Virus record (IMG/VR): IMGVR_UViG_3300045988_152430 | Length of the DNA: 64,000 bases | Origin: a virus | Lineage: Duplodnaviria; Heunggongvirae; Uroviricota; Caudoviricetes | Strand: one strand, 5' to 3' | Shown: piece after piece, positions 46,329-63,827 of the stretch | How the letters are laid out: every line of letters begins with the position of its first letter | How positions within the stretch are numbered: position 1 is the stretch's first letter | The notes under the pieces: generated by a model | Database searches by the model: none | Told to the model about the DNA's origin: nothing | Seen by the model: the letters and a program-made list of their open reading frames with translations, nothing else | Made by a program: the position numbers and the translations under genes

Positions 46329-46338
46329 GGGGGCTGAT

Positions 46339-46950
46339 ATGGGGCTTAATGTTGCTTCAGTAAAGTCTTATGTATCTTCGGCATTAACGACGACATTATT
46401 TGGCTCCGGCGTTGGTGAGCGGGAAGTTGGTAAGCTGACGTCAATCATCATGAACAAAATGCTGTTCGCGCAAGGATGGCAGTTCTCTGTCGAAGTTGAT
46501 GGTCTGGAGGGGGCAGACTTCTTTGCTAAAGACATTACCTACCACGATTACAGCATCGAATATGAAACGATTAAAATCGGCGGAGGGAATATCCTTCAGC
46601 CAACGGAGCGTTCGCCTGGGCAGATAACAATGATGGTCAGGGATACCGTTGATGGCCTCGTTTTGGACTGGTTTAAGACGGCAAAAAGTCGGGTGATCAA
46701 TCCGGACGGTACCGGGAATATACCGTCTAAATATTTGCTCAATGTGCGTATTTATCGGTTGCTGTCCTCCGGTTTAACCAAACTGGAAAATGAGATGACG
46801 GTATTCCCGGTCACTACCGGCGATGTCACCTATGCGCGGGATCAGGTTACGGAATTTAAGTCATTCCCAATGACCTTCGCATTGCACAGCACGTTTAACC
46901 AATCCTCAAGTTCTTTAGCTTCCCTTCTGGGCTTTAGTTTTTCGCTTTAA
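46339..46950 (+). CDS. Late-operon structural protein (203 aa)
   Basis: ORF in track with SD. Confidence 0.55.
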   Translation: MGLNVASVKSYVSSALTTTLFGSGVGEREVGKLTSIIMNKMLFAQGWQFSVEVDGLEGADFFAKDITYHDYSIEYETIKIGGGNILQPTERSPGQITMMVRDTVDGLVLDWFKTAKSRVINPDGTGNIPSKYLLNVRIYRLLSSGLTKLENEMTVFPVTTGDVTYARDQVTEFKSFPMTFALHSTFNQSSSSLASLLGFSFSL

Positions 46951-46964
46951 ATTAAGGAGCAAGG

Positions 46965-47846
46965 ATGCTTTTACCTCTTTTCCCGCTACCATCGCGGCCA
47001 ACTGAATTGATCCAGTTCCGTCAGCCAAATATTGCTGATGCGATGCGTTTCAACTCGATAACACCGGAGGAACAAGAACAACAGACAACGGCGTATTTAA
47101 AAGCCTTGCTGGCTGAACCCGCGAAATATGATCCCCTGACATGGACGGCGCAGGACCGGATTACCGCGTTATGGTGGATATTTACTGGCTCCCGCGAAAC
47201 ACCGATCGAGACATTTACCTACACCTGTAAACATTGCGGTAAAGAGCATTATTACGATTGCGATATGAATGCTCTGGCTGAAGATATCCAGGTCCTGGAA
47301 GTGGAACCGTTCATTGACGATATTGAGGTGTCTGTAGAGGGCGTGCCTTATCAATGGCGTATCGTGCCGCTTGATGGTTGGGCAATGGAAATGCTGGAGA
47401 TGCGCCGAGCAGCATTGCCACCTGAAGACGACGCGGAATTCAAAGAAGCGATCGTTGATTTGCGTTTTTGGGAATTCGCTTATCAGTGTGAACTTTATAA
47501 CGATGTTAGCGGTACTCGTGAAGAGCAGGCTGAGCGTCGTTATGAAACGATCAAACGGATGGCCATTGATACTGAATTTATGAAGCTGGCGGCACACATC
47601 CGGCTGGCTCATGAAAAGCTCGAACATGGTTTACCGTGCTACATCGATAAAGGCGAAATGCGTCTTCGTCTCCCGCCGCACAAATGCCCAAACCAGGATA
47701 CAAAGGAGTCCACAGAGGGTGCGTATACCCGTCTGTGGGTGCCCTTTCGGGCTACTGACTTCATTCCACAGGTGGGGATTGAAAAGCTATCAGACCTTAG
47801 TGTCCAACCTGGTTTTGTATGGGGGTATACCGATTCAGGACGCTGA
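46965..47846 (+). CDS. Late-operon protein (293 aa) with Cys/His cluster
   Basis: ORF in track; YTCKHCGKEHYYDCDMN suggests a metal-binding site. Confidence 0.55.
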   Translation: MLLPLFPLPSRPTELIQFRQPNIADAMRFNSITPEEQEQQTTAYLKALLAEPAKYDPLTWTAQDRITALWWIFTGSRETPIETFTYTCKHCGKEHYYDCDMNALAEDIQVLEVEPFIDDIEVSVEGVPYQWRIVPLDGWAMEMLEMRRAALPPEDDAEFKEAIVDLRFWEFAYQCELYNDVSGTREEQAERRYETIKRMAIDTEFMKLAAHIRLAHEKLEHGLPCYIDKGEMRLRLPPHKCPNQDTKESTEGAYTRLWVPFRATDFIPQVGIEKLSDLSVQPGFVWGYTDSGR

Positions 47847-47927
47847 AAGGCTTACTGAATCCTATGCGTTTTTCCTGTTGGAGAAACTGGAAGAAAAACT
47901 TAAACCGAAACGGTAGGCGATAAGATC

Positions 47928-50900
47928 ATGGAAAGAAAAAACGCCAATATTGACGATGTTATAAGGACAGTTGAAACCGCCAGCGCGAAAGAGCTGGAAG
48001 AGCTTGCAGGTATTCGGGAAGCTGTTGAAGATTTGAAAGGGGAACGAGTTGCAACTGTTGATCCTGTCTCTCGCAGTGTGTCGGCATTAAATCGAACAAT
48101 CGAAAATTCCCGGCCAGACTTTGTGGCCAATGCGCCATCAGTAGACCCTATTGTTGACGCAATGAAACGGCTTAATTTAGGGGACGTTTCTCGTGTAGTT
48201 CAGGAGGGCATTGCTCAAGAGGAACAGCAGGCCAAATCAACTACACCAAAGGGTAAAAAAAGACGCAGGAAGGCTATATCAGAGGATATAAAGGCACAAC
48301 GGACCGAAGCAGCCGAACACGCTCGCGAAATGTTCGATCAAAAAGGCGGTGCGCAAAAAAGCCAAAACCAACGCGATGCGCGTGGTCGTTTTATTGGAAA
48401 GTCAGGGAGTAAGGCCGCAGCGGAAGATGCCCGTGCTGAACGTGCTGAAAAGGCCAGGCGCAAAGAGGATGATGAGCGTCTAAATGCTGAATCAGGTTTA
48501 TTAAAAAAACTGTCAAAAGTAGCTGAAGGCATAGGTAACCCTTCAGAGACTCGTGCCGTCGATGCGTTAGGTTATGCCGTTGCTGGTCCATTGTGGGCAG
48601 CAGGGAAGGAGCTTGGCGGGATATCAAAAGAAGTTGGTGGATCGCTTAATGGTGCCAGAAAGTCTATTGCCGATGTGATTCGTGGCAATGACGATAACAG
48701 CCGTAGAAAAGGTTTTTTTAGGCGTAAATCGCAAAATAGTGCCGATGTCGTTCAGGTTAACACCCAAAAACGGACGGTTCAGGAACTTCAGGAGCAGACC
48801 AGCGAAATTAAAGAGGGCAATGACAAGATTCTCAGCGCCCTTGATCAGATAGCCAAAAACACCGGGAAAAAGAAGGGCGGCTTGCTGTCCAAACTATTTA
48901 GCCTGTTAGGGAAGGGGGCCGGTGGCGTCGCGTCGTTGTTAATGGGGCGTGGCATGCTGAAAAAAGCTGGAGCACTCGCTTTTGGCGCTCTGGGGGCAAA
49001 GAAACTTGTAGGAATGCTACGCGGTGGTGGCAAGAAGACTATCGCCCATGAAGGTGGAGATTTGGCTGCCCGGGCAGCAGGTAAATTTGGATTAAAGGCA
49101 GTTGGTAAAGGGGCGTTACGCGCAATTCCCTTAGTCGGCACAGTGGCTGGAGGTATTTATGATGCGGTAACCGGTTGGAATGATACAGAAGCGCAACGTC
49201 GAGCGTTTGGGCTTAAATCAGGACAAGAGCCATCATTCCAGCAAAAAGCCGCTTATACGTTAGCCAATGTTCTTGATATGGGGGGACTGGTATCTGGTAT
49301 TAGCAGCGCCATTGGTGAGGTTCTCAAATCACTTGGATTTGAGGATATCGGCAATATGTTGCAATCATTTTCGACGGAAAGTATTGCCCAGGCCATTGAT
49401 AGTGGGATTACCAACTTAGAAACATATATTTCTAACCTTGGCGACACCATTTCTACCAAGTTCGAAGATTACACAGCAAAGATTGGTGATGCTGTTTCAG
49501 CATGGTTTAGCGATACATCTAATAAGCTGCTTGAAAAGCTGGATGCCATCAAAGACTTCTTTACTGTTGATAACCTGAAACAGGTTTTCAGTGATGCAAT
49601 TGATAGTGCAATTGATTTCATTAAGAACCCAGGGAAACACATTAAAGAGGCGGCTGGTAATATTTGGGATGGGGTTAAAAATTTACCCGGTAAAGCATTA
49701 GATGCAGCGGTTGATGCCGTTAAAAATACCCCTGCGGCAATGATTGTATCAAAAATACCCAATCCGATCGGCGAGGCTAATGCAAAAGAAATCACTCCAG
49801 AGTTAAAAGCTCCGGTTAATAGCCACCAGGAGACATCTGATTCTAAAACTGAATCCGATGCTAAACAGACTAATATTGCTACCCGCGTGATAAATGCGGC
49901 ACTGGACACGGCGAAAGATAGCAATAAAACAGTTAAAGAAACTGCCAATCAGATTATCAATGCAAATGCCGTAGAAATGGGCAATAGCGCGGTGCGGAAA
50001 ATTGATTCAGCTATTGGACAAAATAGCTCGTCATCATCGTCGCGTAATACCACCGGCACTGGGAATGACATTCAGAAAGCTGCTGATACCTACAATAATG
50101 GCAACTTAGATGTAAAAGTCGGAAGCCTTGGCGCTGAAGGTAAGGCAAATCTCGATAAGTTAGCTCCGTATTTTGCTGAACTAGAGAATAAATATGGTCT
50201 TCCTGAAGGCACTCTTTACGCGATTGCTGCAACTGAATCAGGAGGGGATCCTAACGCAAAGTCTCCGCTTACAAGATCACCAGATGGAAAGTTAAGTGGT
50301 GGCGCACTCGGGATGTTCCAGTTCACGAGTATTGCTCGTAAAGAGACAGGGATATCGGAACCGGATGCATTTGATCCTGTGAAATCGGCAGAAGCTGCGG
50401 CTCTTCTCATGAGCAAGTATCTGAAGCAAGCCAATGGAGACTTAAACGAGGCCATCACTGCATATAACGCTGGGTTTGGCACTATTAATAGGTGGAAAAA
50501 AGGCACAGGTGACTTATCGAAAGAAAACCGTGAGTACGCGATCAAGGTCAATACTCATCGTGCTCGCTATTTAGGTGGTGAAATCTATACACCTGGGGCA
50601 GGAGCACAGGGTGGGGCGCAATATGGAGTGAGGGGACCACTGCCTGATAACGCTGTTATCGATCAGTCTACTGGCCTGGCGTTTACCCCTGGTGATAGCC
50701 CGTTTGAGAAAGGCGGTCTGGTAGACAAAATTGGCAATGCTGTTGGCGTTAACGATCTGGTCAACAAATTCATGAATGGCCGGGGTATGCGTCGGGAAGT
50801 CGTTCAGGGAACGCTCGAAGAACGTGCACGAGGGAAGGGGACCGCAACAGCAGCTGGCAATGTGTATGTTGATACCCCGATGCCAGTTGAAGAGGCGCGT

Positions 50901-51350
50901 CCGGTGGCCAACAACTCAAGTTACTTTGACCAGCTCGGCGCACAAATGGGGATTGATGGACTATTCGATAAACTCCGCAACTCGCCGGGGATGCGGAAAA
51001 ATAATGCGCCTGAACCAGCCTCCACGTCCCAGGTGACGACTGCCGCCAACGATTTGCAGCAACCAACCGGTCGTATGCAGATAGACGGACAGGTTATTAG
51101 TGACCTTGGCGGCTCCGGTGCCAAGCCGACAATGCAGTTGGCTGATAATACCGTTTCACTTGATGGTGAAACGAAGCGGCTGTTTGCGCAGATGACCTCA
51201 TTGCTTGCCAGGATTGAAGAGCACACCAAAGACTCGGCGAAAGGCCAGGGAACTGTCGTAAAGGTCAGCACGCCTCAGCCGGGCGTTATGCGCACGGTAC
51301 CACTGTCAATTGATGATCCGTTGATGAATGACTACGCGAGAGTTGATTGA
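47928..51350 (+). CDS. sit: Tail internal/tape-measure-like protein with lytic transglycosylase (SLT) domain (P1 Sit type)
   Basis: 1140 aa; Gly/Ala/Lys-rich repeats; SLT motif AIAATESGGDPNA...GALGMFQF...AITAYNAGFG; length matches recalled P1 Sit. Confidence 0.85.
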   Translation: MERKNANIDDVIRTVETASAKELEELAGIREAVEDLKGERVATVDPVSRSVSALNRTIENSRPDFVANAPSVDPIVDAMKRLNLGDVSRVVQEGIAQEEQQAKSTTPKGKKRRRKAISEDIKAQRTEAAEHAREMFDQKGGAQKSQNQRDARGRFIGKSGSKAAAEDARAERAEKARRKEDDERLNAESGLLKKLSKVAEGIGNPSETRAVDALGYAVAGPLWAAGKELGGISKEVGGSLNGARKSIADVIRGNDDNSRRKGFFRRKSQNSADVVQVNTQKRTVQELQEQTSEIKEGNDKILSALDQIAKNTGKKKGGLLSKLFSLLGKGAGGVASLLMGRGMLKKAGALAFGALGAKKLVGMLRGGGKKTIAHEGGDLAARAAGKFGLKAVGKGALRAIPLVGTVAGGIYDAVTGWNDTEAQRRAFGLKSGQEPSFQQKAAYTLANVLDMGGLVSGISSAIGEVLKSLGFEDIGNMLQSFSTESIAQAIDSGITNLETYISNLGDTISTKFEDYTAKIGDAVSAWFSDTSNKLLEKLDAIKDFFTVDNLKQVFSDAIDSAIDFIKNPGKHIKEAAGNIWDGVKNLPGKALDAAVDAVKNTPAAMIVSKIPNPIGEANAKEITPELKAPVNSHQETSDSKTESDAKQTNIATRVINAALDTAKDSNKTVKETANQIINANAVEMGNSAVRKIDSAIGQNSSSSSSRNTTGTGNDIQKAADTYNNGNLDVKVGSLGAEGKANLDKLAPYFAELENKYGLPEGTLYAIAATESGGDPNAKSPLTRSPDGKLSGGALGMFQFTSIARKETGISEPDAFDPVKSAEAAALLMSKYLKQANGDLNEAITAYNAGFGTINRWKKGTGDLSKENREYAIKVNTHRARYLGGEIYTPGAGAQGGAQYGVRGPLPDNAVIDQSTGLAFTPGDSPFEKGGLVDKIGNAVGVNDLVNKFMNGRGMRREVVQGTLEERARGKGTATAAGNVYVDTPMPVEEARPVANNSSYFDQLGAQMGIDGLFDKLRNSPGMRKNNAPEPASTSQVTTAANDLQQPTGRMQIDGQVISDLGGSGAKPTMQLADNTVSLDGETKRLFAQMTSLLARIEEHTKDSAKGQGTVVKVSTPQPGVMRTVPLSIDDPLMNDYARVD

Positions 51351-51706
51351 TGGCCAACAATAACGAAATTGATCCTTTGCTGACGCTGGAGTTATCCGGC
51401 GTAAAAACGTATGAGTCCCAGGAGGAGGCCTGGGGCGCTCGTTTATATGAGTGGCTAAACACTTATCAGGGTGAGGTATACGGGGATCCGTCATGGGGCA
51501 ATGTTTTACCGCAGTTTAAACACGAACCGACCAACTTGTCGCATGTTCAAATTGCGGTTGAGGCAATGCTGTTGCAAAAACTGACGGTAGATTTACCTGA
51601 CATACCGATTTCTGGCTTGTCAGTAGCCGAGGGAGATGCTTTTGATAAGTTGAAAATATCCATTCGTATCAGGGATATAACTATCACACAGGACGTGGTG
51701 CTATGA
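51347..51706 (+). CDS. Baseplate wedge protein candidate (gpW/gp25-like, 119 aa)
   Basis: Size and position before a J-like baseplate gene; overlapping stop/start. Confidence 0.45.
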   Translation: MMANNNEIDPLLTLELSGVKTYESQEEAWGARLYEWLNTYQGEVYGDPSWGNVLPQFKHEPTNLSHVQIAVEAMLLQKLTVDLPDIPISGLSVAEGDAFDKLKISIRIRDITITQDVVL

Positions 51707-53136
51707 GTAAAACAACACCGACTAAAGACAGTATTCGTGCAGAGTTTGAAGAGCTTGTCGAGAAAGATTCATTCTGGTCGAAGTTTGTCGGCTCTCAATT
51801 TGTCTCGATGCTGACATTGTTTATTACCCAGATTGTCTACAGGTGCTTTCAGTATGCCGATGCGGCGCTGGCTGAAGGCTTTATATCGACCGCGACGCGG
51901 CGTTCCTCTATCCTGGCAGCGGCAGAAACGAATAGTTACGTTGGTACCAAGCCAACACCGTCATCGGGGATGATTGAGATCACCGCCACAAGTGAAGATG
52001 CCCCAGCGGTAATTCCCAAAAACATGCCTTTAATATCTGACGACCAGTACCCTTACATGACTATGGATGTATGCAGGTTGGTTGACGGCACCGGTACGGT
52101 AGAAGTGGCACAGTTGGAAATCCAGGAGGTGACATATACCGTTACGGCTGCCAAAGAATTTCTGGAAGTCGTGTTATCAAAGGCTCTCACTGCTGTCTGC
52201 TATAAGCTGGAAGTATTCGTGACGACCGATGGTAAGACCACGCAGTGGTCTTCCAGCACAATGTTCCGGTTAGCTGGTAGTAAAAGCCAGGTCTACGTTG
52301 AGTTTTATAAACCATCCGAACAGTTGGGTGTCCGATTCGGCGATGGGCTAATTGGGCAAATACCGCCAGAAGGCTCGACAATTACGCTTAAGGTATGGTG
52401 CACCAACGGCGATATAACCCTGGTTGCTGGCCAAAACCTGACGCCTGTCGATTCTGCGGCTAATTTAGCTAATTTGATTTCAGTTAAGACAACGACACCT
52501 ATAACCGCAGGTACCGATGCTGAAACAACGGAGATCACACGTAACCGTGCACAATATTACCTTGCCTATGATGATCAGGTCGTATGGGGCGGGGACTATA
52601 CGTATTTTCTGGTTCGTAACATCCCGGGGCTGTCCTGGGTAAAGGCATGGGGCGAAGGCCAGCAAGAGAAATTAGATGGTGCTTATAATGTTCAGAATAT
52701 CAATAAGATATTTATTTCAGGATGGCATCCAAATAAAAGCCAGTCAGAGCTTGAAGAAATGATCCTGACTGCCTTTAAGAAGGTACCGAATGAACTGAAC
52801 AAGAAATTCTCTTATAAAGAGGTCAGAAAACTACCATTTAAGATAACCATCACCGGACGGATATCGGCAAGCCTGACCATTGAGAATGTGACCGATGAGC
52901 TGAAGTCGGCACTGGAAACAAAATTTGGGCGCGACTCAACTTTCTTTGATCCGAGCCGCGTCGGAAAGTACATCCTGATTAAGAAAAAAGACGTTTGGGC
53001 GTTTATCGAAACGCTGGGTTATTTCCGCGACTTTTATCTTGAATTTGTCGAGTGGAATGAGTCCAACGGCTTTTACGATTTCGTTTATCTGGATACAGAA
53101 AGCTCCACCTTTAATATTTCGTATGAGGAGGAGTGA
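51703..53136 (+). CDS. Baseplate J-like protein candidate (477 aa)
   Basis: Size and order (W-like, J-like, I-like, then fibre) typical of myovirus baseplate modules. Confidence 0.5.
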   Translation: MSKTTPTKDSIRAEFEELVEKDSFWSKFVGSQFVSMLTLFITQIVYRCFQYADAALAEGFISTATRRSSILAAAETNSYVGTKPTPSSGMIEITATSEDAPAVIPKNMPLISDDQYPYMTMDVCRLVDGTGTVEVAQLEIQEVTYTVTAAKEFLEVVLSKALTAVCYKLEVFVTTDGKTTQWSSSTMFRLAGSKSQVYVEFYKPSEQLGVRFGDGLIGQIPPEGSTITLKVWCTNGDITLVAGQNLTPVDSAANLANLISVKTTTPITAGTDAETTEITRNRAQYYLAYDDQVVWGGDYTYFLVRNIPGLSWVKAWGEGQQEKLDGAYNVQNINKIFISGWHPNKSQSELEEMILTAFKKVPNELNKKFSYKEVRKLPFKITITGRISASLTIENVTDELKSALETKFGRDSTFFDPSRVGKYILIKKKDVWAFIETLGYFRDFYLEFVEWNESNGFYDFVYLDTESSTFNISYEEE

Positions 53137-53972
53137 TGCAGCGTTCCTGGTTTAATAACCGGCTTACATCAGCTAAGCAAAAGTCATTGCTCTATAAATC
53201 ATTGGCTGATTTGGTTCAGTCAATGATGGACACCTTTGTTGACCCATGGTTGGAGCGAATTACCAACCGGAAGTCTATTTTCTCCATGAGCAAGGAGGAT
53301 CTGGAGACCAGGACAAATGAACTTGGCCAGTTCTTTACTATCAGAACCTCGAACTCATCTTCCGTTCCGATGTTGTTACAACAGCGGCTTGATGAGATCC
53401 ACTTTAAGGGAACTGAACGTCCTATAAACCAGACAATTTACCGCGAATTTAACGGTATTTCTGTTTTATGGGATCCGATATATGCACCGGTGGACCTTGA
53501 GCGTCATCCCTATGGCACAGTTCTAATACCAGAAAGCACACTGGAGACTACCGGCGGCACATTCGGCGAGATGTTTCTGACTTCCAGAGGGATGATCAGT
53601 ATTCCCATAAACGACCTGGCCAGGACAATGGGTATTACTGGCACGATAGATCAGTCCGCAATTACAGAAGAAATTCTCAGAAAGTTTAATCAGTTCGTAA
53701 AGCCTCTACTGCCACTGCATATAGTGTTTGATGGGCTTACGCTCTATTTGTCGGTTGTTGTAAATGAACAGGCCGACATGATCACTTTGAACGAGATTTC
53801 TGATACCGAAAAAGCATTCTGCTGGTTTGAAACTTCGGATACAACTTCGCTTACTGGAGTTACGTCGATTAGCGCCCCGATCACCGCAACGCCTGGTGGC
53901 ACTATTGTGAAAGCGACACCTACGTTTGATCGCACACGCGCAGATGATTTGTTGCTGGATAGCGACGCCTGA
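53133..53972 (+). CDS. Baseplate/tail-fibre attachment protein candidate (279 aa)
   Basis: ORF in track; overlapping stop/start with the J-like gene. Confidence 0.5.
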   Translation: MMQRSWFNNRLTSAKQKSLLYKSLADLVQSMMDTFVDPWLERITNRKSIFSMSKEDLETRTNELGQFFTIRTSNSSSVPMLLQQRLDEIHFKGTERPINQTIYREFNGISVLWDPIYAPVDLERHPYGTVLIPESTLETTGGTFGEMFLTSRGMISIPINDLARTMGITGTIDQSAITEEILRKFNQFVKPLLPLHIVFDGLTLYLSVVVNEQADMITLNEISDTEKAFCWFETSDTTSLTGVTSISAPITATPGGTIVKATPTFDRTRADDLLLDSDA

Positions 53973-53999
53973 CAATCACCCCGTCCGTAGGGCGGGGTG

Positions 54000-54020
54000 A
54001 CAAGTTACTTCTCTTACAAT
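54000..54020 (+). promoter_or_regulatory. Late-promoter-type element (ACAAGTTACT-N5-TACAAT)
   Basis: Motif directly after a GC hairpin (caccccg..cggggtg) and 30 nt upstream of the 54051 start. Confidence 0.55.
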
Positions 54021-54050
54021 GAGGCTTCACAACATTGATTAGGGAAAATC

Positions 54051-54485
54051 ATGTCTGACGTCTCAACAAACCTCTATAAGAGTCAGTTGTTGGACTATTA
54101 CTATCAGCGGCGCGCTGAATCGTCCATTAACAAAGGCTCTCGATTTTTAATCAGCAAGGCCGTTTTCGGTACCAGTTCACTGGTTACCAAAAATGAAGAT
54201 GGTACTTATGACATTGGAGAACTGCCAAAGGCTTTCGAGTTGGCAGAACTGACCAGTCAATTTTGCACCATAAACCTCGTCCCAACCTACTCTGGTGGGA
54301 TAATTACTGTCCGAATGGACCTTGATCAAAGCCAGTTGCAGGAAGGGAGAAACTACCCATTCAACACTCTGGTTGTTCTAGATAACGAGAACAAGCCAAT
54401 CGCCATTATTTGTGTCCAGGAAGACTCGCTGTATGTGGGCAAAACATATACCGCAGTTATGGCCATAAACACGACTACAGCATAA
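54051..54485 (+). CDS. Tail-fibre operon first gene (144 aa), possibly fibre-associated structural protein
   Basis: ORF in track with SD; precedes the tail-fibre gene. Confidence 0.5.
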
Positions 54486-54496
54486 GGATATGCTTG

Positions 54497-57400
54497 ATGA
54501 ATGACGTTACAGTTGTTACATCAGTTACTTACCCATCGCCTGAGTCACTGGCTCTGGTGGCTGATGTGCAATACCACGAACCATATCTGTCAGCCGCGCT
54601 AAACCGAAAATTCAGGGGAATTGTTGACCCTGGATTTTATGCTGGTTTCCTGCCGAAGCCTGGTGGTGGGATGAACCTGTTAATCACCTCAGTGGATGGT
54701 GATAAAACTGCTGGCGCTGCGTCAGTGGATATTGGTGAATTCTACCAGGTAACTATTCAGCACCGTAAGGATATTTCTCTTGCACTTAGTGCAGGCAAGA
54801 AATATGCAATTGTGCTGAAGGGAAGATACCTCCTTGGAGAGGATACCTATCAGGTTAATACCGCGTCACATATTCATGCGGCTGAATTTGTTGCCAGAAC
54901 CTATACCGATTCATATCAGTTAGGAGATGGGGAGCTGCTTGTTTGTACGGTGAATATCCCTGCTGGCGTATCAGCCATTACCCAGGAGATGATTGATACA
55001 TCCGAGCGTATTAACCGCACGATCGGCATTGATATTTCAGACTCTGTAACCAGTAGCAGAAGTGATGTTGCTGCAAGTTCGCTGGCAGTTAAAAAAGCCT
55101 ACGATCTGGCGAAAAGCAAGTATACGGCGCAGGATGCAAGCACAACGCAAAAGGGATTAGTTCAGCTCAGTAGCGAAACTAACAGCGACAGCGAAACAAT
55201 GGCGGCTACCCCTAAAGCCATTAAGTCTGTAAAAGATCTTGCTGATACCAAAGCGCCAATAGAAAGCCCGAGTCTGACAGGAACGCCAACCGCGCCGACG
55301 GCAGCGCAAGGTACAAATAGCACGCAGATCGCAAATACAGCCTTTGTTAAGGCAGCTATAACGGCACTTATCAACGGTGCACCTGGCACACTGGATACGC
55401 TTAAAGAAATAGCTGCTGCGATCAATAACGACCCGAATTTCAGCACAACTATCAACAATGCTCTGGCTCTTAAAGCTCCTTTAGCAAGTCCTGCATTAAC
55501 GGGAATACCTACTGCGCCAACCGCTGCACAGGGTACGAATAACACGCAGATTGCTACGACCGCTTATGTAAGAGCTGCCATATCCGCATTGGTTGGTTCA
55601 TCACCAGAAGCTCTTGATACCCTGAATGAGCTTGCCGCAGCACTTGGTAATGACCCGAACTTTGCGACAACAATGACAAATGCGCTGGCAGGCAAACAGC
55701 CTCTGGATGCAACTTTAACCGCGCTTGCGGGTCTTGCTACAGGCGCAAATAAATTGCCGTACTTTACCGGTACAGACACTGTTTCTCAGACTGACTTAAC
55801 GTCAGTCGGTCGCGATATTCTGGCCAAAACAAGCGTCCTTGCTGTTATCCAATACCTTGGTTTAAGAGAACTCGGCACAAGCGGTGAAAAGATCCCCCTG
55901 TTGAGCACGGCTAACACATGGAGTGCACGCCAGACTTTTAACGGCGGGATCACCGGGGCGCTGACAGGGAACGCCGATACCGCGACGAAGTTGAAAACAG
56001 CACGGAAGATTAACAACGTTTCATTTGATGGTTCGGCAGACATAACGCTGACACCTGAGAACCTTGGCGTCACCAGTCTGACGTTTGAGAAAAACAACGG
56101 TGAAATGCCTATTGATGCTGACCTAAATACTTTCGGTCCCGTTGAGGCTTATCTTGGTGTCTGGTCCAAAGCAACATCCACCAACGCAACACTGGAGAAA
56201 AATTTCCCGGAAGATAATGCTGTCGGTGTGCTTGAGGTATTTGCTGCCGGAAATTTTGCAGGTACGCAACGCTTTACCACGAGAGACGGCAATGTATACA
56301 TACGCAGACTCGCCAATAAGTGGAATGGCTCTGATGGTCCGTGGGGCATATGGCGTCACACTCAATCAGCTACCCGCCCTTTGAGTACGACTATAGACCT
56401 GAATACGCTTGGAGCCGCCGAACATCTTGGTTTATGGCGTAACAGTAGCTCGGCTATAGCTTCATATGAACGCAATTATCCAGAGGAAGGCGGCTTTGCT
56501 CAGGGGATGCTTGAGATCCTCGAAGGCGGGAATTATGGAAGAACGCAACGTTATACCACTCGCCGCGGAAATATGTATGTCCGCTGCCTTGCGGCAAGCT
56601 GGGATGCATCAAATCCGCAGTGGGAACCGTGGTTAAAAGTCGGTCATCAGTCAGAGAGTCGTTATTACGACGGGGATTTGAATGATGTGACTTCACCAGG
56701 TATTTACAGCGTTACAGGTAAAGCGACCAACGGTCCAATACTGGACGGAAACGGCGTGACAGTCCTCGGTATTCTGGAGGTGTTGAGGCGCTTTGATGGT
56801 GTTAACGTATGGCAGCGTTATACAACTGCCGGAACAGGTGCAACCCTTAAAGGTCGCACGTTTGAGCGCGTCTATACCGGTAGCTCGTGGAGCGAATGGC
56901 GGGAAGTCTACACCTCGTATTCACTTCCCCTGAATCTGGGTATCGGCGGTGCTGTGGCAAAGCTCACCAGCCTGGACTGGCAGACCTACGACTTTGTTCC
57001 GGGCAGTCTGATAACCGTTCGGCTTGATAATATGACCAATATTCCCGACGGTATGGACTGGGGCGTTATTGATGGCAACCTGATAAACATCGCTGTTGGC
57101 CCAAGTGATGATACCGGTACGGGACGCTCAATGCATGTATGGCGCAGCACTGTAAGTAAAGCCAACTACCGCTTTTTTATGGTGCGTATTTCAGGAAATC
57201 CGGGAAGCCGCACGATCACAGCAAGACGTGTGCCAATTATCGACGAAGCTCAGACATGGGGCGCGAAACAGACATTCAGTGCTGGCCTTTCTGGTGAACT
57301 GTCCGGCAATGCTGCGACAGCAACAAAGCTGAAAACAGCCCGTAAAATTAATAACGTTTCGTTTGATGGTTCCGGGGATATTGAGGTCCTTCCTGTTGGT

Positions 57401-58042
57401 GTTCCGCTGCCGTGGCCATCAGATACTGTGCCGTCTGGTTACGCCCTGATGCAGGGACAGACTTTTGACAAATCTGCATACCCGAAACTTGCAGCCGCTT
57501 ATCCGTCAGGCGTGATCCCGGATATGCGTGGCTGGACAATCAAGGGCAAACCCGCCAGTGGTCGGGACGTATTGTCTCTGGAACAGGATGGCATTAAATC
57601 GCACACCCACAGCGCCAGCGCATCCAATACGGATTTGGGTACGAAAACCACATCTTCGTTTGATTACGGTACTAAATCAACGAATAACACAGGTGCACAT
57701 ACCCACAATGTATCTGGTACTGCAAATAGTGCTGGCGCACATACTCATACCGTGCCATTAAGGAGACCAAACAGTGGCGGTATGAATTTCGACTGGCTGG
57801 ATGGTGCATCAAGTGGCACGGTGGTGGGGAATGGAACTGTGCCTTCTTCTGGCGCACATACCCACTCAGTATCAGGCACCGCTACAAGTGCTGGGGCACA
57901 TGCACACACTGTTGGTATTGGCGCTCATACGCACTCTGTTGCGATTGGTTCACATGGACATACCATCACCGTTAACGCTGCTGGCAACGCGGAAAACACC
58001 GTTAAAAACATCGCATTTAATTATATTGTGAGGCTTGCATAA
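54497..58042 (+). CDS. Long tail fibre protein (1181 aa from ATG at 54497)
   Basis: Repeated SP(S/A)LTG(T/I)[11 protein letters not shown](S/N)TQIA units, Ser/Thr/Gly-rich shaft, C-terminal tandem His-x-His array (AHTHSV...[15 protein letters not shown]) like T-even distal fibre tips; AAGGA SD before 54497. Confidence 0.8.
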
Positions 58043-58659
58043 TGGCATTCAGAATGAGTGAACAATCACGTACTGTAAAAATTTATAACCTGCTGGCCGG
58101 AACTAATGAGTTTATTGGTGAAGGTGACGCATATATTCCACCTCATACAGGGCTGCCAGCTAATTCTACAGATATCGCCCCACCGGAAATTCCTGCTGGC
58201 TTTGTGGCAGTTTTTAACAGTGAAAATGAATCGTGGAATATTGTTGAAGACCATCGTGGTAAAACGGTCTATGACGTGGCATCGGGGGACGCGTTGTTTA
58301 TTTCTGAACCCGGACCGCTACCAGAGAATGTCACCTGGTTGTCGCCAGCAGGGGAATATCAGAAGTGGGACGGCGTATCCTGGGTGAAGGATGAGGAAGC
58401 AGAAAAACTGTTTCGGATACGGGAAGCGGAAGAGAAAAAGGCAAGGTTGATCCAGGAGGCAACAGATAACATCGCAATTCTGCAGGATGCAGTTAATCTT
58501 GAAATAGCAACAAACGAGGAAAATTCACAACTGGATTCCTGGAGAAAATACAGAGTATTAGTGAGTAGAATTGACACCAGTACAGCTCCGGATATCGTAT
58601 GGCCAGAGCTGATGAATCAGGGTTATGTACGGGAGGACGAGCAGATAACTTCAGACTGA
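58042..58659 (+). CDS. Tail fibre assembly chaperone (Tfa/U family)
   Basis: TAATG stop/start coupling with the fibre gene; [14 protein letters not shown] and C-terminal VWPELMNQ resemble Tfa family patterns. Confidence 0.7.
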
Positions 58660-59186
58660 AATTTAGTGATGAATGTTGAATCATCAGGAATATCATGCAA
58701 TACCAATGCATGAGCACCTATTGTGACATTGTTTCCTATACGCACTTTGCCACCAAGAATGGTGGCATTACAACCAATGGTCACATTATGTCCTATAACA
58801 ATATCCATATCATTAAAATCACCACGTAGCCCAATAGTTACCCCTGGTTTTATTGAACAATTTTCACCGATTGTTACTTTGTGACCGATAACAACACTGT
58901 TGAGATAAGAAATATCAAAGCCTTTCCCTATATTTACAGTTAAAGGGACTGTTACATTATATTTATCAAGAATTAAACGTTCTATTTTCCCCGCAATCTT
59001 CCGACAGTATCCGCCTTTATCAAAAAGGTATTTGGCCATGCGCCACCAAAATAAATAACGAACTCTTCTATGTTTTATTGCGCGAACAATTGCCTTTCGC
59101 CAGGAGAAAGGACGCTCGCTACCGATTACTTCATAGTGAATACAGTCTTTAAGTTCATTAATATTCATGTCTCTATTATTCAGCAT
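58623..59186 (-). CDS. Hexapeptide-repeat (left-handed beta-helix) acetyltransferase
   Basis: Tandem hexapeptides [21 protein letters not shown]...[34 protein letters not shown]; convergent with and overlapping the 3' end of the Tfa gene; AT-rich own upstream region. Confidence 0.7.
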
Positions 59187-59189
59187 AAT

Positions 59190-60180
59190 ATAATAATGTG
59201 CCCAATTATTATAATGATTTTAATGGGTTATTTCTACTGATTATCCAGTGTGTCTGGCGGTTTTCGGTATTATCTGCCGGAACCATGCCTCATCCAGCGG
59301 GTATTTGCTGCCTGGGTTATCCGGTTTTACGGTCACTCCCTCAGGCCTCCGATTCTGGTCACGGCGGGTTTGTTATTTTCCAATGCGTCGGATGACCACT
59401 GCCGCAACTTCTGCACCATTTTTTGGGAGCGGGATTCCACTCCTACGCAACCTGCGCTTTTTGTGCAGCCTGTTTTGCGTGCTGTCCCGGATTTTTGAGT
59501 TTCATTCTGCCTCCATGAGCCTATCAGAGACGACACCAATCCACTTAAGCACGATGCCAAGACCATCAAGGAGCTGCGTCAGAGGCCCAGCACAATGTTC
59601 TGCTTGATCGGCATAGGGGGGGAGCACAAGGCTGCGCCCCTGCCACACCACCCGGCATGCAGGTCCGTACCGGGCTTCCCCGGCTTCTGACGCAATGTTC
59701 TGTCAAGAGTCATATCTTTTGGCTTTCCTTCTCGTTCGGCCCTTCGTCGGAGTCCTGACTACTACGGCCTCTGCTGACTTCTCGCTCCGTCTTACGACGT
59801 TGCCCTTTCAGGCATGAGGCGAGAACTCCCCAGGTAAGAACGCGATCCTTCCCCGCACAACCGTCGGATCTACGCGACTTTGTCACGAAAGCTTCGCAGT
59901 GATGTGCCTGCTCGCCTTGCTCCATCGCGCCTCATATCCGATTCTTGTTCATCGGCTCACGGGTTCATTCCGTGCTTCCTCCCCACGCCCGGTCGCCCTC
60001 ACGCAGTTGCACTTCCTTTCGCTCGCTGTGGTCAGCTCGCGGGAGGGCTTTCACCTCCAAGATCGCGCCCATGCTGGGCGCACACATCCTCCACGCTCTA
60101 AAGGACGTGGAGGATGTCAAGTAACATGACCGGTTGAGAAGTTACTTTGCATACCATTACCTCCTGACAACGTAGGAGGG
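59190..60180. other. About 1 kb ORF-poor, GC-rich, hairpin-dense segment of unknown nature (candidate structured RNA or decayed element)
   Basis: No ORF over 120 aa in any frame; runs of G/C, a perfect 11-bp stem (catcctccacg..cgtggaggatg at about 60086-60117) and other stems; sits between the acetyltransferase and the holin operon. Confidence 0.4.
60137..60157 (+). promoter_or_regulatory. Late-promoter-type element (AGAAGTTACT-N5-TACCAT)
   Basis: Motif and spacing as in the other late operons, about 30 nt upstream of the holin-like gene. Confidence 0.45.
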
Positions 60181-60185
60181 AACTT

Positions 60186-60515
60186 GTGCTTGACACACAG
60201 GAATTAGCTCCAGTTGCTATTGCGCTCCTGCTTTCAGTAATTGGTGGGATAGGCACGTTCCTGATGGATGTCCGAGACGGTCGCCAGTCTGGCAATTTGT
60301 TGGGATTGGTTACGGAGATCTTTGTTGCAGTGACAGCTGGCGCGGTGGCGTACCTATTGGGGCAACACAAGGGCTGGGAGTTATCAATTACGTACTTAAT
60401 GGTAACGATAGCCAGCAATAACGGTCATGAGGTGATTTCAGGGATGAAACGAGTGAATATCGATAGCATTCTGAATGTTCTTACAAGTTTGGTGAAAAAG
60501 GGAGGCGGGAAATGA
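60186..60515 (+). CDS. lydA: Holin-like membrane protein (LydA-like)
   Basis: 109 aa, GTG start with GGAGGG SD; TM helices (PVAIALLLSVIGGIGTFLM, IFVAVTAGAVAYLLG); first gene of the operon that continues into the DarA-like gene, as recalled for P1. Confidence 0.55.
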   Translation: MLDTQELAPVAIALLLSVIGGIGTFLMDVRDGRQSGNLLGLVTEIFVAVTAGAVAYLLGQHKGWELSITYLMVTIASNNGHEVISGMKRVNIDSILNVLTSLVKKGGGK

Positions 60516-60955
60516 TTGGCTGGGGTGTATGCGTTCTTGCGTTAGCCTTAGCCGATCGCTATTTGCTAAAACGCAAGGACATCACGCATTTAGAACTTGG
60601 TGATGTGGAAATTAAACCGGGTTTCATCCGGGTGCCGTTCAAATACCGGTCTAAATTCCCGTTTTTGCGCGGCGCAACGGTCAGATATTGGATCCGCGAT
60701 GTTCAGAAGCCGACGACAGTGATTGAAGGCGAACAACGTTGTCTGACGTCGGCTGAACAGGGCGAAAACAGTGAATGGTTGTACATACCCACTGAATATA
60801 TGGGTAAAGGAGAACGGCTGTGGCATTTCAACGTCATGGTTACGCATGGCGACTCGTTCATTAACCCGTTGTATCGGATTTTCCCTGTTACTCAGCAAAT
60901 CCGCAGAAGTTACGTAATAAATCTCGCACAGGATGTGTCAGATGACGAAAAATAA
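60512..60955 (+). CDS. lydB: Holin antagonist candidate (LydB-like, 147 aa)
   Basis: Overlapping start/stop with the holin gene; N-terminal hydrophobic segment; assignment by operon position. Confidence 0.5.
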   Translation: MIGWGVCVLALALADRYLLKRKDITHLELGDVEIKPGFIRVPFKYRSKFPFLRGATVRYWIRDVQKPTTVIEGEQRCLTSAEQGENSEWLYIPTEYMGKGERLWHFNVMVTHGDSFINPLYRIFPVTQQIRRSYVINLAQDVSDDEK

Positions 60956-61544
60956 GTATGCAACGGTCGATTTTGACCAGGTTAATGAAAAGGGGCTGAA
61001 ATCCCTTATCGCGGCGATCAATAAAACCAGTGTTACGGTAATTGAGGTTGACTCCAGCAACCGCGCAACAACGAAAGATGGCGTTAAAGTTAAAACCGCA
61101 AAGCTGGTTCTTAACGACGGACAAATTCTTGCCATACAGGTAAACGATACTGGCGATATATCGTCTGTGAGGCTGAATGGAAAAGCTATTCCTAACGCTC
61201 AATCGCCGGATATCAAGACGCTTGGTACCGTCATGGGACAGGCGGCCCGTAAAAACTCCGCAAAATTCCAGAAATCACTGATCGCCAAAGCGAAGCGTGT
61301 TGCCAATCCGGTAGACAAGAAACCGGCAGTTAAATCCAACTTTCAGCGCCTGCAAGAAGCAAAACAGCGGAATGCTCAGGTGGTTGCCGCTTATAAGTCC
61401 GCGCAGAATTCGGTGTCTTTCAATCAACAGCAGATCACTGATTTGCGGGCGAAGCTGGATAAGGAGACGGGCCGACTCAATAACGAAAAGGCACGGAATG
61501 GCGAACTCAAACGTCGTCTTAAGCAACTGAAAGCAGGAAATTAA
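60942..61544 (+). CDS. Lys/Ala-rich coiled-coil protein preceding the DarA-like gene (possibly Hdf)
   Basis: Track ORF 60933..61544; second ATG at 60942 follows AGGA; position matches the recalled hdf slot. Confidence 0.5.
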   Translation: MTKNKYATVDFDQVNEKGLKSLIAAINKTSVTVIEVDSSNRATTKDGVKVKTAKLVLNDGQILAIQVNDTGDISSVRLNGKAIPNAQSPDIKTLGTVMGQAARKNSAKFQKSLIAKAKRVANPVDKKPAVKSNFQRLQEAKQRNAQVVAAYKSAQNSVSFNQQQITDLRAKLDKETGRLNNEKARNGELKRRLKQLKAGN

Positions 61545-61545
61545 C

Positions 61546-63465
61546 ATGGAACAGTTCAATATCAATAAAGGGGTGACGATCAAGCCTGGGCTTGACGTGC
61601 TTCCCCCGCCAGTGACTGATGATGAATATCGCGCATTAATGGCCGGTGAGGACCGCTATCTGATGACGGAATCCAACACCCTGGAGGAAATCGAGGCTAC
61701 GTTCTTCTATGACACGCCGATCCACTGGTGTGCTACGGATTTACTGGAGGCGATTAGTTCTACTCGTTTGCAGTTACACAGGACCATGCAGGCATTTGTC
61801 CGGGCATTGAACCAGAAGCTGAATGGTACCGGAATCTCTGCGGGGAGTGATAAAACGGGGGATGTGGCCCAGAGCGGCGCGCGCGCGATCGGCGGCGCTG
61901 AAATTGGCCGGGCACGTAACGTTAACGGGCTGCCGGTCTTGCCAGCCATTATTCCGCTCAGTGATGGTCAGACTATCAGCATTCTGTTTCATAGCCCGAC
62001 AGCGGAAAACCGGATCACCAATAGCGATACGCTGGTTGCTTTCCAGTTCTTACTGAATAAAAAAGACGTTACTCACACCGTTGCTCCGATGAGTGGACGT
62101 GATATGACGTTGGCGCAGGTCACCATGAAACTTGCCAACCTTGCAGAGAAAAACTCGGCAAAATTCCAGCGTGCGCAGAAGAAGAAAAAAGCCCTTGTTG
62201 ATGAAATAACCCAACTACAGGCTGACAGTGACCAGAAAGAGGATGCCATGAGCGACCTCGCGGATCAGGTGGCAGCGGTAGAAGGGCAGAAGGCAGATCT
62301 GGAGCAGAAAATTAACGCTGTTGCATCGGAAGCGGATTCTCTTTATGAAGAGAATGAGCGTTTGCAGACGGAGATTGATCAGCTCAATCGCACTGGTGGG
62401 CGCGATACCATTGCTCCAGCGGGGATGACTGGTGGGCACTCTCGCGCGCTGACGGATCGCCTTGCCAGTATCAAAAATCGTATGCATATGGACGGGGAAG
62501 TGACGCTCAGTAATGGTGCATCAATGAAGCAATTCATTGAGGACGGCGAAGGGTATATCCAGTTAAGCGATTCGGATGGCAGCGTGTACATGATCAAGGC
62601 TAAATCCATACAGGGTGTGGACATGGCAGATGCGATCGGCAAGCTGTTTAAAGCCTATAAAGCGGGTAATGTATCGGAATACCTGGTCCAACCAGAAGAA
62701 CATAAACCGGAAAACGTCGAACCTGAACCAGCGGAGGATACCGGTAGCTTTTCGCCTGAACCAGAAGTCTCTGTAGGTGCATATCGATATGCCCTGCAAA
62801 TGCGTCCGGCGGCCCCTGGCGCAATACCTGAAGGTAACAAAGCAATTCTGCCGCGCCCTGATGAAGGTGACCCGTATTATGAATATGCACGCTACGGCAT
62901 TGCTACTTACGATACCCCGCTTTCTGATCAGCAAATGAGTGAGTACGACCTGAAGTTATTGCCTCGCGAGGATTCTTTCGACTTCCTGGCGAAGACACTT
63001 ACTAATGGTCCGTTTGGCAAATATGCACAAAAAGCTCTGGAGCTGGCCACCAGCTCACCAGACGAGTTCCGCGTAATGCTGAAAACTCAGTTTCAAAAAA
63101 CTTTCCCCAATATTGCGTTTCCGGGGGGCGCTGGCACCGAGAAAATGGTGCAGAGCATGATCAATGCATTGCAGGCCGAAGTCGGTGAGATTACTCAGCC
63201 AGAACCTGCCTCGGCACAGCCTGATGAAACGGTTAGCGAAGCAGATGCAGCGGCTAATAAAGCCATTGAATATCTCAATAACGTGATGGATATGCAAAGC
63301 ACTGACATGGCGGAGATCCGTAACGCCCGGGGCAATGTCCGGGAAGCGATTGCAGCCCTTCAGGCTGCCGGACGTTTTGAGGAAAACGAAGAGCTGGTTA
63401 ACGGCGCAGCTCGCCACCTGGCTGATCTGTTGGTAGCAATCCAGAAAGCGGGGGTAGCGGCATGA
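61546..63465 (+). CDS. darA: DarA-like capsid-packaged antirestriction protein candidate (639 aa)
   Basis: Large ORF after holin/antiholin and a small gene, the operon order recalled for P1 lydA-lydB-hdf-darA; acidic C-terminal third; no catalytic motif seen. Confidence 0.55.
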   Translation: MEQFNINKGVTIKPGLDVLPPPVTDDEYRALMAGEDRYLMTESNTLEEIEATFFYDTPIHWCATDLLEAISSTRLQLHRTMQAFVRALNQKLNGTGISAGSDKTGDVAQSGARAIGGAEIGRARNVNGLPVLPAIIPLSDGQTISILFHSPTAENRITNSDTLVAFQFLLNKKDVTHTVAPMSGRDMTLAQVTMKLANLAEKNSAKFQRAQKKKKALVDEITQLQADSDQKEDAMSDLADQVAAVEGQKADLEQKINAVASEADSLYEENERLQTEIDQLNRTGGRDTIAPAGMTGGHSRALTDRLASIKNRMHMDGEVTLSNGASMKQFIEDGEGYIQLSDSDGSVYMIKAKSIQGVDMADAIGKLFKAYKAGNVSEYLVQPEEHKPENVEPEPAEDTGSFSPEPEVSVGAYRYALQMRPAAPGAIPEGNKAILPRPDEGDPYYEYARYGIATYDTPLSDQQMSEYDLKLLPREDSFDFLAKTLTNGPFGKYAQKALELATSSPDEFRVMLKTQFQKTFPNIAFPGGAGTEKMVQSMINALQAEVGEITQPEPASAQPDETVSEADAAANKAIEYLNNVMDMQSTDMAEIRNARGNVREAIAALQAAGRFEENEELVNGAARHLADLLVAIQKAGVAA

Positions 63466-63827
63466 CACTATCAGCTATTGAGTTAATGGATCTCAGCGAT
63501 AAGTTGGATGCTCTGATGTCCAAAGCGGCGACCGCGAGTGGCATGGAGTTGCTGGATATCAGCGATGAAATTGACCAGATCATGCAACAGATGGGGTACG
63601 GCGCGTCCGGCGGTGGTAGTGGCGAGGAAAAACAACCTTCGGAACATGATGGTGTGCCAAAACTGGTTGCTGATTTCCTGGCTGATAAATTCGTCGATCA
63701 GAGCACCGATGCATTTATCGGTACCTTGCAGGATTTGAGTCAATATGTTGGCACATACATCGACCTGGACCAGGTTAAACAGCACACGGCGGCATGGATA
63801 GCCGCCAACATTAAAGAGGCAGCGTGA
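63462..63827 (+). CDS. Small acidic protein downstream of the DarA-like gene (possibly DdrA)
   Basis: 121 aa, overlapping start/stop with the preceding gene. Confidence 0.5.
   Translation: MTLSAIELMDLSDKLDALMSKAATASGMELLDISDEIDQIMQQMGYGASGGGSGEEKQPSEHDGVPKLVADFLADKFVDQSTDAFIGTLQDLSQYVGTYIDLDQVKQHTAAWIAANIKEAA

Follow-up and report, generated by a model that had tools for sequence, protein, structure and literature searches.

A hexapeptide-repeat acetyltransferase-like gene, carried with a tail-fibre block, stands in place of the cin/C-segment switch of a P1-like element

Introduction

Phage P1 carries a tail-fibre switch, composed of the cin gene and the invertible C segment (P1 31.2-36.5 kb), between the constant part of the tail-fibre gene S and the LPdar promoter with lydA. 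We analysed a stretch of 64,000 nucleotides from a P1-like phage-plasmid of the Caudoviricetes (IMG/VR record IMGVR_UViG_3300045988_152430), hereafter the window, in which the same slot holds a cassette with a single fibre tip, its assembly chaperone gene tfa, a convergent gene for an acetyltransferase-like protein and a fragment of a group II intron. The lydC-cin-C segment is a described variable region of P1-like elements, termed 'region 3' (PMC9603915) or 'RD-3' (PMC6906374). In JL22, the acetyltransferase gene accompanying tfa has been named 'sacF', and the reason for its presence was stated as unknown (PMC9603915). JL22 and vB_EcoM-Ro157c2YLVW have the same order as the window at the same locus, namely fibre, tfa, a convergent 'serine acetyltransferase' and lydA; pRHB17-C14_2 also has a homologue there, but with a U' gene between the homologue and tfa, and a lydC-like open reading frame (ORF) afterwards. 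The acetyltransferases of these three elements are 33-42% identical to that of the window and keep the catalytic histidine. Those elements lack the intron fragment of the window and have kept either a U' remnant or a lydC-like gene.

More distant systems are also instructive. In phage P2, the lysogenic-conversion gene Z/fun, whose product blocks phage T5, follows the tfa gene G. The P2-like prophage of Escherichia coli O121 RM8352 carries the acetyltransferase gene between a G-like tfa and the sheath/tube operon, likewise AT-rich and in the opposite orientation, at a position which we take to be the P2 Z/fun accessory slot; the Z/fun protein itself is unrelated to the acetyltransferase-like protein. 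NeuO of prophage CUS-3 is a polysialic acid O-acetyltransferase encoded beside the tailspike gene, and it modifies the glycan recognised by the phage. As a prophage-borne cytoplasmic acetyltransferase of the same fold beside a receptor-binding gene, it resembles the protein studied here, a likeness in fold and position. Unlike neuO, the window gene lacks phase-variable 5' tandem repeats (none of the NeuO-like kind in 58000-60300 by Tandem Repeats Finder), and its carriers have several serotype labels. WcaB and EpsC are of similar size (about 160-190 amino acids), with a helical N-terminus followed by a beta-helix, and the window protein has relatives in polysaccharide loci at 30-39% identity; it differs from WcaB and EpsC in its own N-terminal signature (EVIG..FSW..FWWR), in a tyrosine at the place of the catalytic histidine and in scores far below the family cut-offs.

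Results

The Cin switch is replaced by a fibre block and an intron fragment

The sequence of P1 (NC_005856) is collinear with the window at 46338-56043, which spans tail genes, R and the constant part of S, and again at 60126-63823 with 98.4% identity, from the LPdar promoter and lydA onward (blastn). The intervening 5.05 kb or so of P1, with lydC, cin, cixL and the C segment, are missing, and 4.08 kb of other sequence (56044-60125) stands instead, which bears out the preliminary description in placing the gene where P1 has its invertible C segment. The features of the locus are as follows.

54497-58042, plus strand: chimeric tail-fibre gene S, the N-terminal 518 amino acids P1 Sc-like and the distal part foreign
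55848-55867, no strand assigned: orphan cixR, 20/20 identity to P1 cixR, inside S and about 180 bp before the joint
56064-59256, no strand assigned: mobile 3.2-kb block with the distal fibre, tfa and the acetyltransferase gene plus 70 bp of its upstream region
58042-58659, plus strand: tfa, tail-fibre assembly chaperone (Pfam Caudo_TAP, E=1.6e-39)
58623-59186, minus strand: acetyltransferase-like gene, longest ORF of 187 amino acids, hexapeptide-repeat class with a predicted serine-acetyltransferase fold
59208-59236, minus strand: candidate sigma-70-like promoter TAGAAA-17-TATAAT, 10/12 consensus matches, inside the mobile block
59257-60125, minus strand: 5' fragment of a group II intron, about 870 bp (Rfam group-II-D1D4-3 and D1D4-1)
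60126-60515, plus strand: P1 homology resumes with the LPdar late promoter (box at 60139) and lydA (Pfam LydA holin)

Residues 1-518 of P1 S match window 54497-56050 at 96.5% (tblastn). The start of S at 54497 was also called by the annotation pipeline PGAP in the near-identical plasmid LR890336; the longest ORF of S, which overlaps gene R, has a TTG start codon at 54410, and both the P1 S homology and PGAP put the true start at 54497.

The preliminary description had reported neither alternative fibre genes, nor a serine invertase, nor cix-like inverted repeats. For the first two, searches of the 64-kb window agree: tblastn with P1 U', Sv' and U returned no second set of fibre and chaperone genes, and tblastn with P1 Cin gave no match (best E=3.3). 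The statement on cix sites requires amendment, since there is no inverted pair but one perfect cixR lies at 55848-55867; no second site is found in the window, where the next best match to cixR has five mismatches. With no serine invertase, a single cix site and no alternative fibre or chaperone genes, the locus is not an invertible segment of the Cin/Gin/Pin type. Because a perfect cixR survives without its partner, the ancestor evidently carried the inversion system. Given that lydC, cin and the whole C segment have been replaced and only the orphan cixR is left, the import of the block and the intron fragment left one fixed fibre instead of a switchable pair. A host invertase of the Pin/Gin type could in principle still act on the orphan site. 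What the window shares with P1 at this slot is the constant part of S, cixR and some 180 bp of what was the C segment; unlike P1, it has neither Cin, cixL, Sv'/U' nor lydC, and carries one fixed tip and chaperone of the lambda Stf/Tfa (stfR/tfaR) type, the acetyltransferase-like gene and the intron fragment.

The block at 56064-59256 corresponds to one ungapped match of 3193 bp at 94.3% identity to the phage-plasmid pSCU-204-5 (47 kb) and to phage vB_EcoM-613R2, both of which have P2-type baseplate and tail genes (blastn). Many chromosomal copies share about 97% identity with its acetyltransferase part (58660-59256), and among them the RM8352 prophage described above is the sole context examined. 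Genes of the stfR/tfaR and tfaQ types share 84-89% identity with the fibre tip and with tfa over its first two thirds, up to 58439. In the set of 5426 complete E. coli genomes, 3927 match some stretch of 57400-59256; only about 205 run on into the window-type 3' end of tfa and the acetyltransferase gene. The left joint falls at a fibre motif that is present twice in S (about 55990-56050 and 57295-57390), and a sister group of P1-like plasmids differs from the window exactly between both copies (56037-57410). As the joint between P1 and foreign sequence is at the first copy and the sister lineage differs between the copies, the repeated motif seems to serve as a handle for recombination. On the right, the exchange ends a short way upstream of the LPdar promoter. 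A block of P2-like origin, with the group II intron fragment beside it, has taken the place of lydC, cin and the C segment in a lineage that makes up a minority of the P1-like phage-plasmids.

The intron fragment scores 103 bits against Rfam group-II-D1D4-3 (cut-off 32) and 47 bits against D1D4-1 (cut-off 35), and its GC content is 57-59%. In minus-strand orientation, the GTGCG 5' end at 60083 comes after a terminator-like hairpin (60113-60088), and the element breaks off at 59257; insertion just behind a hairpin is typical of class C introns. The fragment has no reverse-transcriptase ORF, with stops in all three frames. At full length it occurs in 35 plasmid records, and among the full-length matches listed, 9 of 9 are also plasmids with the cassette. 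PLSDB holds no complete copy of the intron, and outside the cassette plasmids gives only partial matches at 80-95%.

The acetyltransferase-like gene is interlocked with tfa and under purifying selection

The preliminary description had noted, directly after the fibre and tfa genes, a minus-strand hexapeptide-repeat ORF overlapping the 3' end of tfa by about 37 nt. Both observations hold: the ORF is present at 58623-59186, and the stretch common to the two convergent ORFs, stop codons included, is 58623-58659, exactly 37 nt. The likely coding sequence is somewhat shorter than the longest ORF (58623-59168, 546 nt, 181 amino acids), starting at Met7 according to the alignment of homologues and the PGAP annotation of near-identical plasmids. 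The overlap covers the last 12 codons of tfa and its stop codon. The C-terminus of the acetyltransferase deviates from those of its relatives, whose ends read ...SEI(I/F)PKK..., and the antisense strand of the acetyltransferase gene encodes the tail of Tfa past the 'WPE' motif; for these two reasons, the overlap resembles a junction left by recombination, beyond which each reading frame continues as far as the first stop codon it meets. A clade at about 90% identity has a shorter overlap, of some 14 nt.

Between acetyltransferase alleles differing by up to 8%, the pairwise ratio of nonsynonymous to synonymous substitution rates (dN/dS) is 0.08-0.10. This low ratio, together with a mean predicted local distance difference test (pLDDT) score of 89.6 for the AlphaFold model, argues strongly that the ORF is a functional gene under purifying selection and not a chance reading frame. 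One copy, in the E. coli E8 chromosome, is split by IS1, and truncated copies occur in other records, so the gene is dispensable in some hosts.

The GC content of the gene is 0.34-0.36, against about 0.50 in the flanking genes. The candidate promoter listed above comes from a consensus scan, in which a consensus match is no proof of function. The P1 late-promoter box AAGTTACTT is absent upstream of the gene, occurring in the window only at 54002 (LPs) and 60139 (LPdar). The opposite orientation, the candidate -10 element and the missing late box would fit an independent expression of the gene.

Protein family, fold and the tyrosine at position 94

The protein belongs to the hexapeptide-repeat superfamily, with 47.5 bits against the Pfam Hexapep profile PF00132 (cut-off 27) over two stretches. 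The AlphaFold model has four N-terminal helices followed by the short repeated strands of a left-handed beta-helix, and its best Foldseek neighbours are serine acetyltransferases (probability 1.0, template modelling score about 0.7). We regard it as a cytoplasmic hexapeptide-repeat acyltransferase-like protein with a predicted serine-acetyltransferase fold. It matches phrog_2154, a family of unknown function, over its full length (E=2.3e-78, residues 5-186 against positions 2-184 of the 185 in the profile). The preliminary description had considered an O-antigen, maltose/galactoside, serine or antibiotic type; homology places the protein in the serine-acetyltransferase fold and PHROG 2154, but it attains none of these curated types. 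The best NCBIfam families are EpsC, CysE and WcaB, all far under their cut-offs: 78.8 bits against 150 for EpsC; 69.4 against 210.65 (TIGR01172) and 42.9 against 397 (PRK11132) for CysE; 62.5 against 196 and 60.3 against 194.65 for WcaB. The xenobiotic acetyltransferases Vat and CatB reach 22-28 bits against cut-offs of 300-475, and identities as LacA, Maa, WbbJ or NeuD were rejected, the scores being far below the curated cut-offs; Vat, CatB, LacA, Maa and WbbJ are weaker matches than EpsC, CysE and WcaB. The PADLOC-DB v2 collection contains no defence family matching the protein at E<=0.01.

Several features separate the protein from a true CysE. At 181-187 amino acids, it is about 90 residues short of the usual 273 or so, and only residues 47-172 align to PRK11132 (113-236); Pfam gives no match to the N-terminal SAT domain. 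The serine-binding GDRHP loop (GGDRHPKIG in serine acetyltransferases) reads DFNDMD, so that the Arg-His pair is gone. The catalytic histidine of the DHATG motif (His158 of E. coli CysE) is also missing, Tyr94 being aligned with it (HMMER and MAFFT).

In the first alignment of the family, 98 of the 119 sequences keep the histidine, and a tyrosine equivalent to Tyr94 is found in 16, all at about 52% identity or more and including that of Hafnia phage yong2. Since the gene is under strong purifying selection, the tyrosine form is evidently functional; classical acetyl transfer by it is uncertain. The few close relatives are enterobacterial, and beyond them identity falls to 43% or less. Enterobacterial members on mobile elements share the N-terminal signature LKEC..EVIG..FSW..FLFWWR. 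In public records, the protein is labelled 'serine acetyltransferase', and full-text literature searches found no functional study of the family, the only mentions being the remark on 'sacF' of JL22 and a figure legend on Streptococcus thermophilus phages.

Genomic settings of the family

The settings of the family were surveyed at 80 loci of IMG/VR. Nearly all close copies (40 of 41) lie tail-to-tail with tfa, and at least 25 of the 37 divergent copies (35-49% identity) are likewise tail-to-tail within about 55 nt of a neighbour, which is tfa at 18 loci and a fibre gene at 7. Homologues convergent to tfa are also found in Hafnia yong2 (52%), Citrobacter phiNP (38%) and the P1-like Ro157c2YLVW/JL22 (33-37%), and that of pRHB17-C14_2 is 40-42% identical. 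Three different lineages of the family thus occupy the P1 cin locus, namely the window type, Ro157c2YLVW/JL22 (L004, 6201-8120) and pRHB17-C14_2 (L020, 5132-8049), and these occupants are independent.

Three of three non-mobile relatives (30-39% identity) are encoded within polysaccharide loci, alongside genes for NeuB, CMP-sugar synthetases, glycosyltransferases and a flippase. This kinship supports a sugar-acetyltransferase ancestry. The closest chromosomal relatives give no functional clue: P0014 adjoins a transposase fragment, whereas P0015 belongs to a tandem array of three paralogues. These paralogues, in Enterobacteriaceae bacterium BIT-l23 (CP138199; L012, 8001-9697), each belong to a different mobile-element subclade and are chromosomal, with neither a prophage nor a polysaccharide locus evident around them; their products might assemble into mixed trimers or differ in substrate.

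Homologues are present in 375 plasmid records, 180 of them conjugative (tblastn). Those on IncK2/Z and IncF plasmids (L018, 5935-6522; L019, 5875-6462) have yagA and the toxin-antitoxin pair yacAB nearby. A gene of the same fold, at 31% identity, is found in virulent S. thermophilus phages of the 987 group, in the same orientation and directly after the receptor-binding genes. In Streptococcus phage 9874 (L101, 5010-5489), this 'serine acetyltransferase' lies between the receptor-binding genes and the holin, and an AcrIIA6 gene is located about 3.5 kb downstream.

An accessory gene in P1-like plasmids and E. coli chromosomes

In PLSDB, the P1 marker lydAB-hdf is found in 476 plasmid records and P1 cin in 464 (219 nearly full-length), and the complete arrangement of 57500-60600 is found in 37. 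With 37 cassettes among 476 P1-like plasmids, and cin matches in 464 records, the gene is accessory and not part of the backbone. Its opposite strand, candidate -10 element, lack of a late-promoter box, GC content of 35% and patchy presence are those of a moron, as the preliminary description had called it. That description had left room for a conserved backbone gene with a morphogenetic role, or for a locus invariable among relatives; the gene is accessory in P1-like plasmids, and the locus coincides with the published variable region. Among the 5426 complete E. coli genomes, 184 carry the gene, at 158 chromosomal and 58 plasmid places, and the carriers include strains labelled O121 and O166 and enterotoxigenic strains from several hosts. 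As the carriers span differently labelled serotypes and strain types, the target is probably not one single O-antigen.

Discussion

We tentatively propose, with a confidence just short of even, that the acetyltransferase-like gene is a surface-glycan-modifying moron carried with the fibre block. The gene would be transcribed in the lysogen from its own candidate sigma-70 promoter and not with the late genes. The protein would then use acetyl-coenzyme A on a sugar of a cytoplasmic surface-glycan precursor, either nucleotide- or undecaprenyl-linked, and the modified glycan may be one shared by many Enterobacterales. The altered surface could change the adsorption of phages with the same fibre type, resulting in their exclusion or in progeny that are not lost on lysogens. 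As a consequence of the 37-nt interlock with tfa, fibre specificity and the accessory function would be inherited together. The strongest support for a role on glycans comes from the kinship with polysaccharide loci and the recurrent coupling to receptor-binding modules, which make it plausible. The lysogenic conversion by O-antigen or receptor acetylation evoked in the preliminary description is, judged from the sequence, still a hypothesis.

A number of observations weigh against this proposal. The protein misses every curated family cut-off. Tyrosine replaces the catalytic histidine in 38 of 38 close IMG/VR copies, and histidine is present in 39 of 39 divergent viral copies. Some homologues are located away from fibre genes, after int in the P2-like ESSI2 phages or, at 35-39% identity, on conjugative IncK2/Z and IncF plasmids beside a ProQ/FinO-family gene, and for this reason the link to tfa may merely reflect a favoured insertion site for accessory genes. 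The stfR/tfaR-type relatives of the fibre are thought to use OmpC or the lipopolysaccharide core, and not a glycan obviously open to cytoplasmic acetylation. The most serious of these points are Tyr94, the range of carrier strain types and the plasmid homologues far from fibre genes, and they leave room for a defence or pseudoenzyme role.

It is conceivable, if unlikely, that the protein is a competition or defence factor that works off surface glycans, a general weapon of mobile elements whose substrate might be, for instance, a small molecule, a nucleotide or a protein belonging to an invading phage or plasmid. Such a role would be in keeping with homologues that lie beside an abortive-infection gene in ESSI2_ev040, after hicAB in phiNP and by yacAB and the ProQ/FinO-family gene on an IncK2/Z plasmid, as well as with the many plasmid records noted above, almost half of them conjugative; it is less easily reconciled with the empty PADLOC-DB search, with the lack of any partner gene conserved alongside and with the nearest non-mobile relatives, all of which reside in polysaccharide loci. 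The position of Tyr94 in the DHATG motif leads to a different explanation, which we judge quite unlikely, in which the change ended classical transfer and the protein binds a glycan intermediate or joins the trimers of a host acyltransferase of the same fold. The tyrosine is fixed in the clade down to 52% identity, against the histidine of 98 of 119 relatives and of every divergent viral copy, and the strong purifying selection indicates that the tyrosine form does something; yet the remaining acetyl-coenzyme A-binding beta-helix is well conserved, and some acyltransferases of the hexapeptide-repeat fold work without a catalytic base.

The tight linkage to tfa or fibre genes in most phage contexts, and the same-fold gene of the S. 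thermophilus 987 group that directly follows the receptor-binding genes in the same orientation, could also be explained by a morphogenetic role in modifying the fibre, Tfa or another virion component. We consider this highly improbable, for the gene opposes the late operon and has no P1 late-promoter box, P1 and most P1-like elements do without it, copies exist on conjugative plasmids and after int, and at least one copy is split by IS1. Hardly any credence can be given to a true serine O-acetyltransferase (CysE) for cysteine synthesis or O-acetylserine signalling: the public annotation and the best structural matches point in that direction, but the scores are under the TIGR01172 and PRK11132 cut-offs, the protein is too short with an incomplete N-terminal domain, and the catalytic histidine and the serine-binding Arg-His are replaced.

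Beyond the glycan-modifying moron proposed here for the window, a wider hypothesis can be formulated, which we regard as doubtful: that the mobile-element subfamily of PHROG 2154 is an unrecognised class of fibre-linked surface-masking enzymes, in which tip, chaperone and receptor-altering enzyme are exchanged as one interlocked unit among unrelated phages and phage-plasmids, and perhaps conjugative plasmids as well, with a tyrosine-based or non-catalytic mechanism in the window clade.

Much of the material was already available, since hundreds of public records contain the annotated sequence, and both the variability of the locus and the replacement by tfa and a serine acetyltransferase in JL22 are published. 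What is new here are the exact breakpoints, the orphan cixR, the P2-like donor block and the intron relic, along with the recognition of a fibre-linked mobile-element subfamily and of the His-to-Tyr change in the window clade. As it stands, the case is a well-documented, ordinary replacement of accessory genes. Should the protein alter a surface glycan that enterobacteria share, it would act in exclusion or serotype modification and be widespread as such, being present in about 3% of complete E. coli genomes, and host-range and exclusion functions would be exchanged together as one block. The gene is found on many P1-like plasmids, at least one of which (KX518745) has a resistance-related name, and is currently mislabelled as a cysteine-biosynthesis enzyme. 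Irrespective of function, the locus records the loss of the Cin switch in P1-like elements by import of a P2-type fibre module, a loss which bears on the prediction of host range for phage-plasmids.

A further occurrence of the cassette is in the 'chromosome' record of E. coli EC16 (CM169485, 5.10-5.11 Mb), within at least 12.6 kb of P1-like sequence. This stretch spans from a baseplate gene through the darA operon and is 99.4% identical over window 54000-61000; it could be an integrated phage-plasmid or an assembly artefact.

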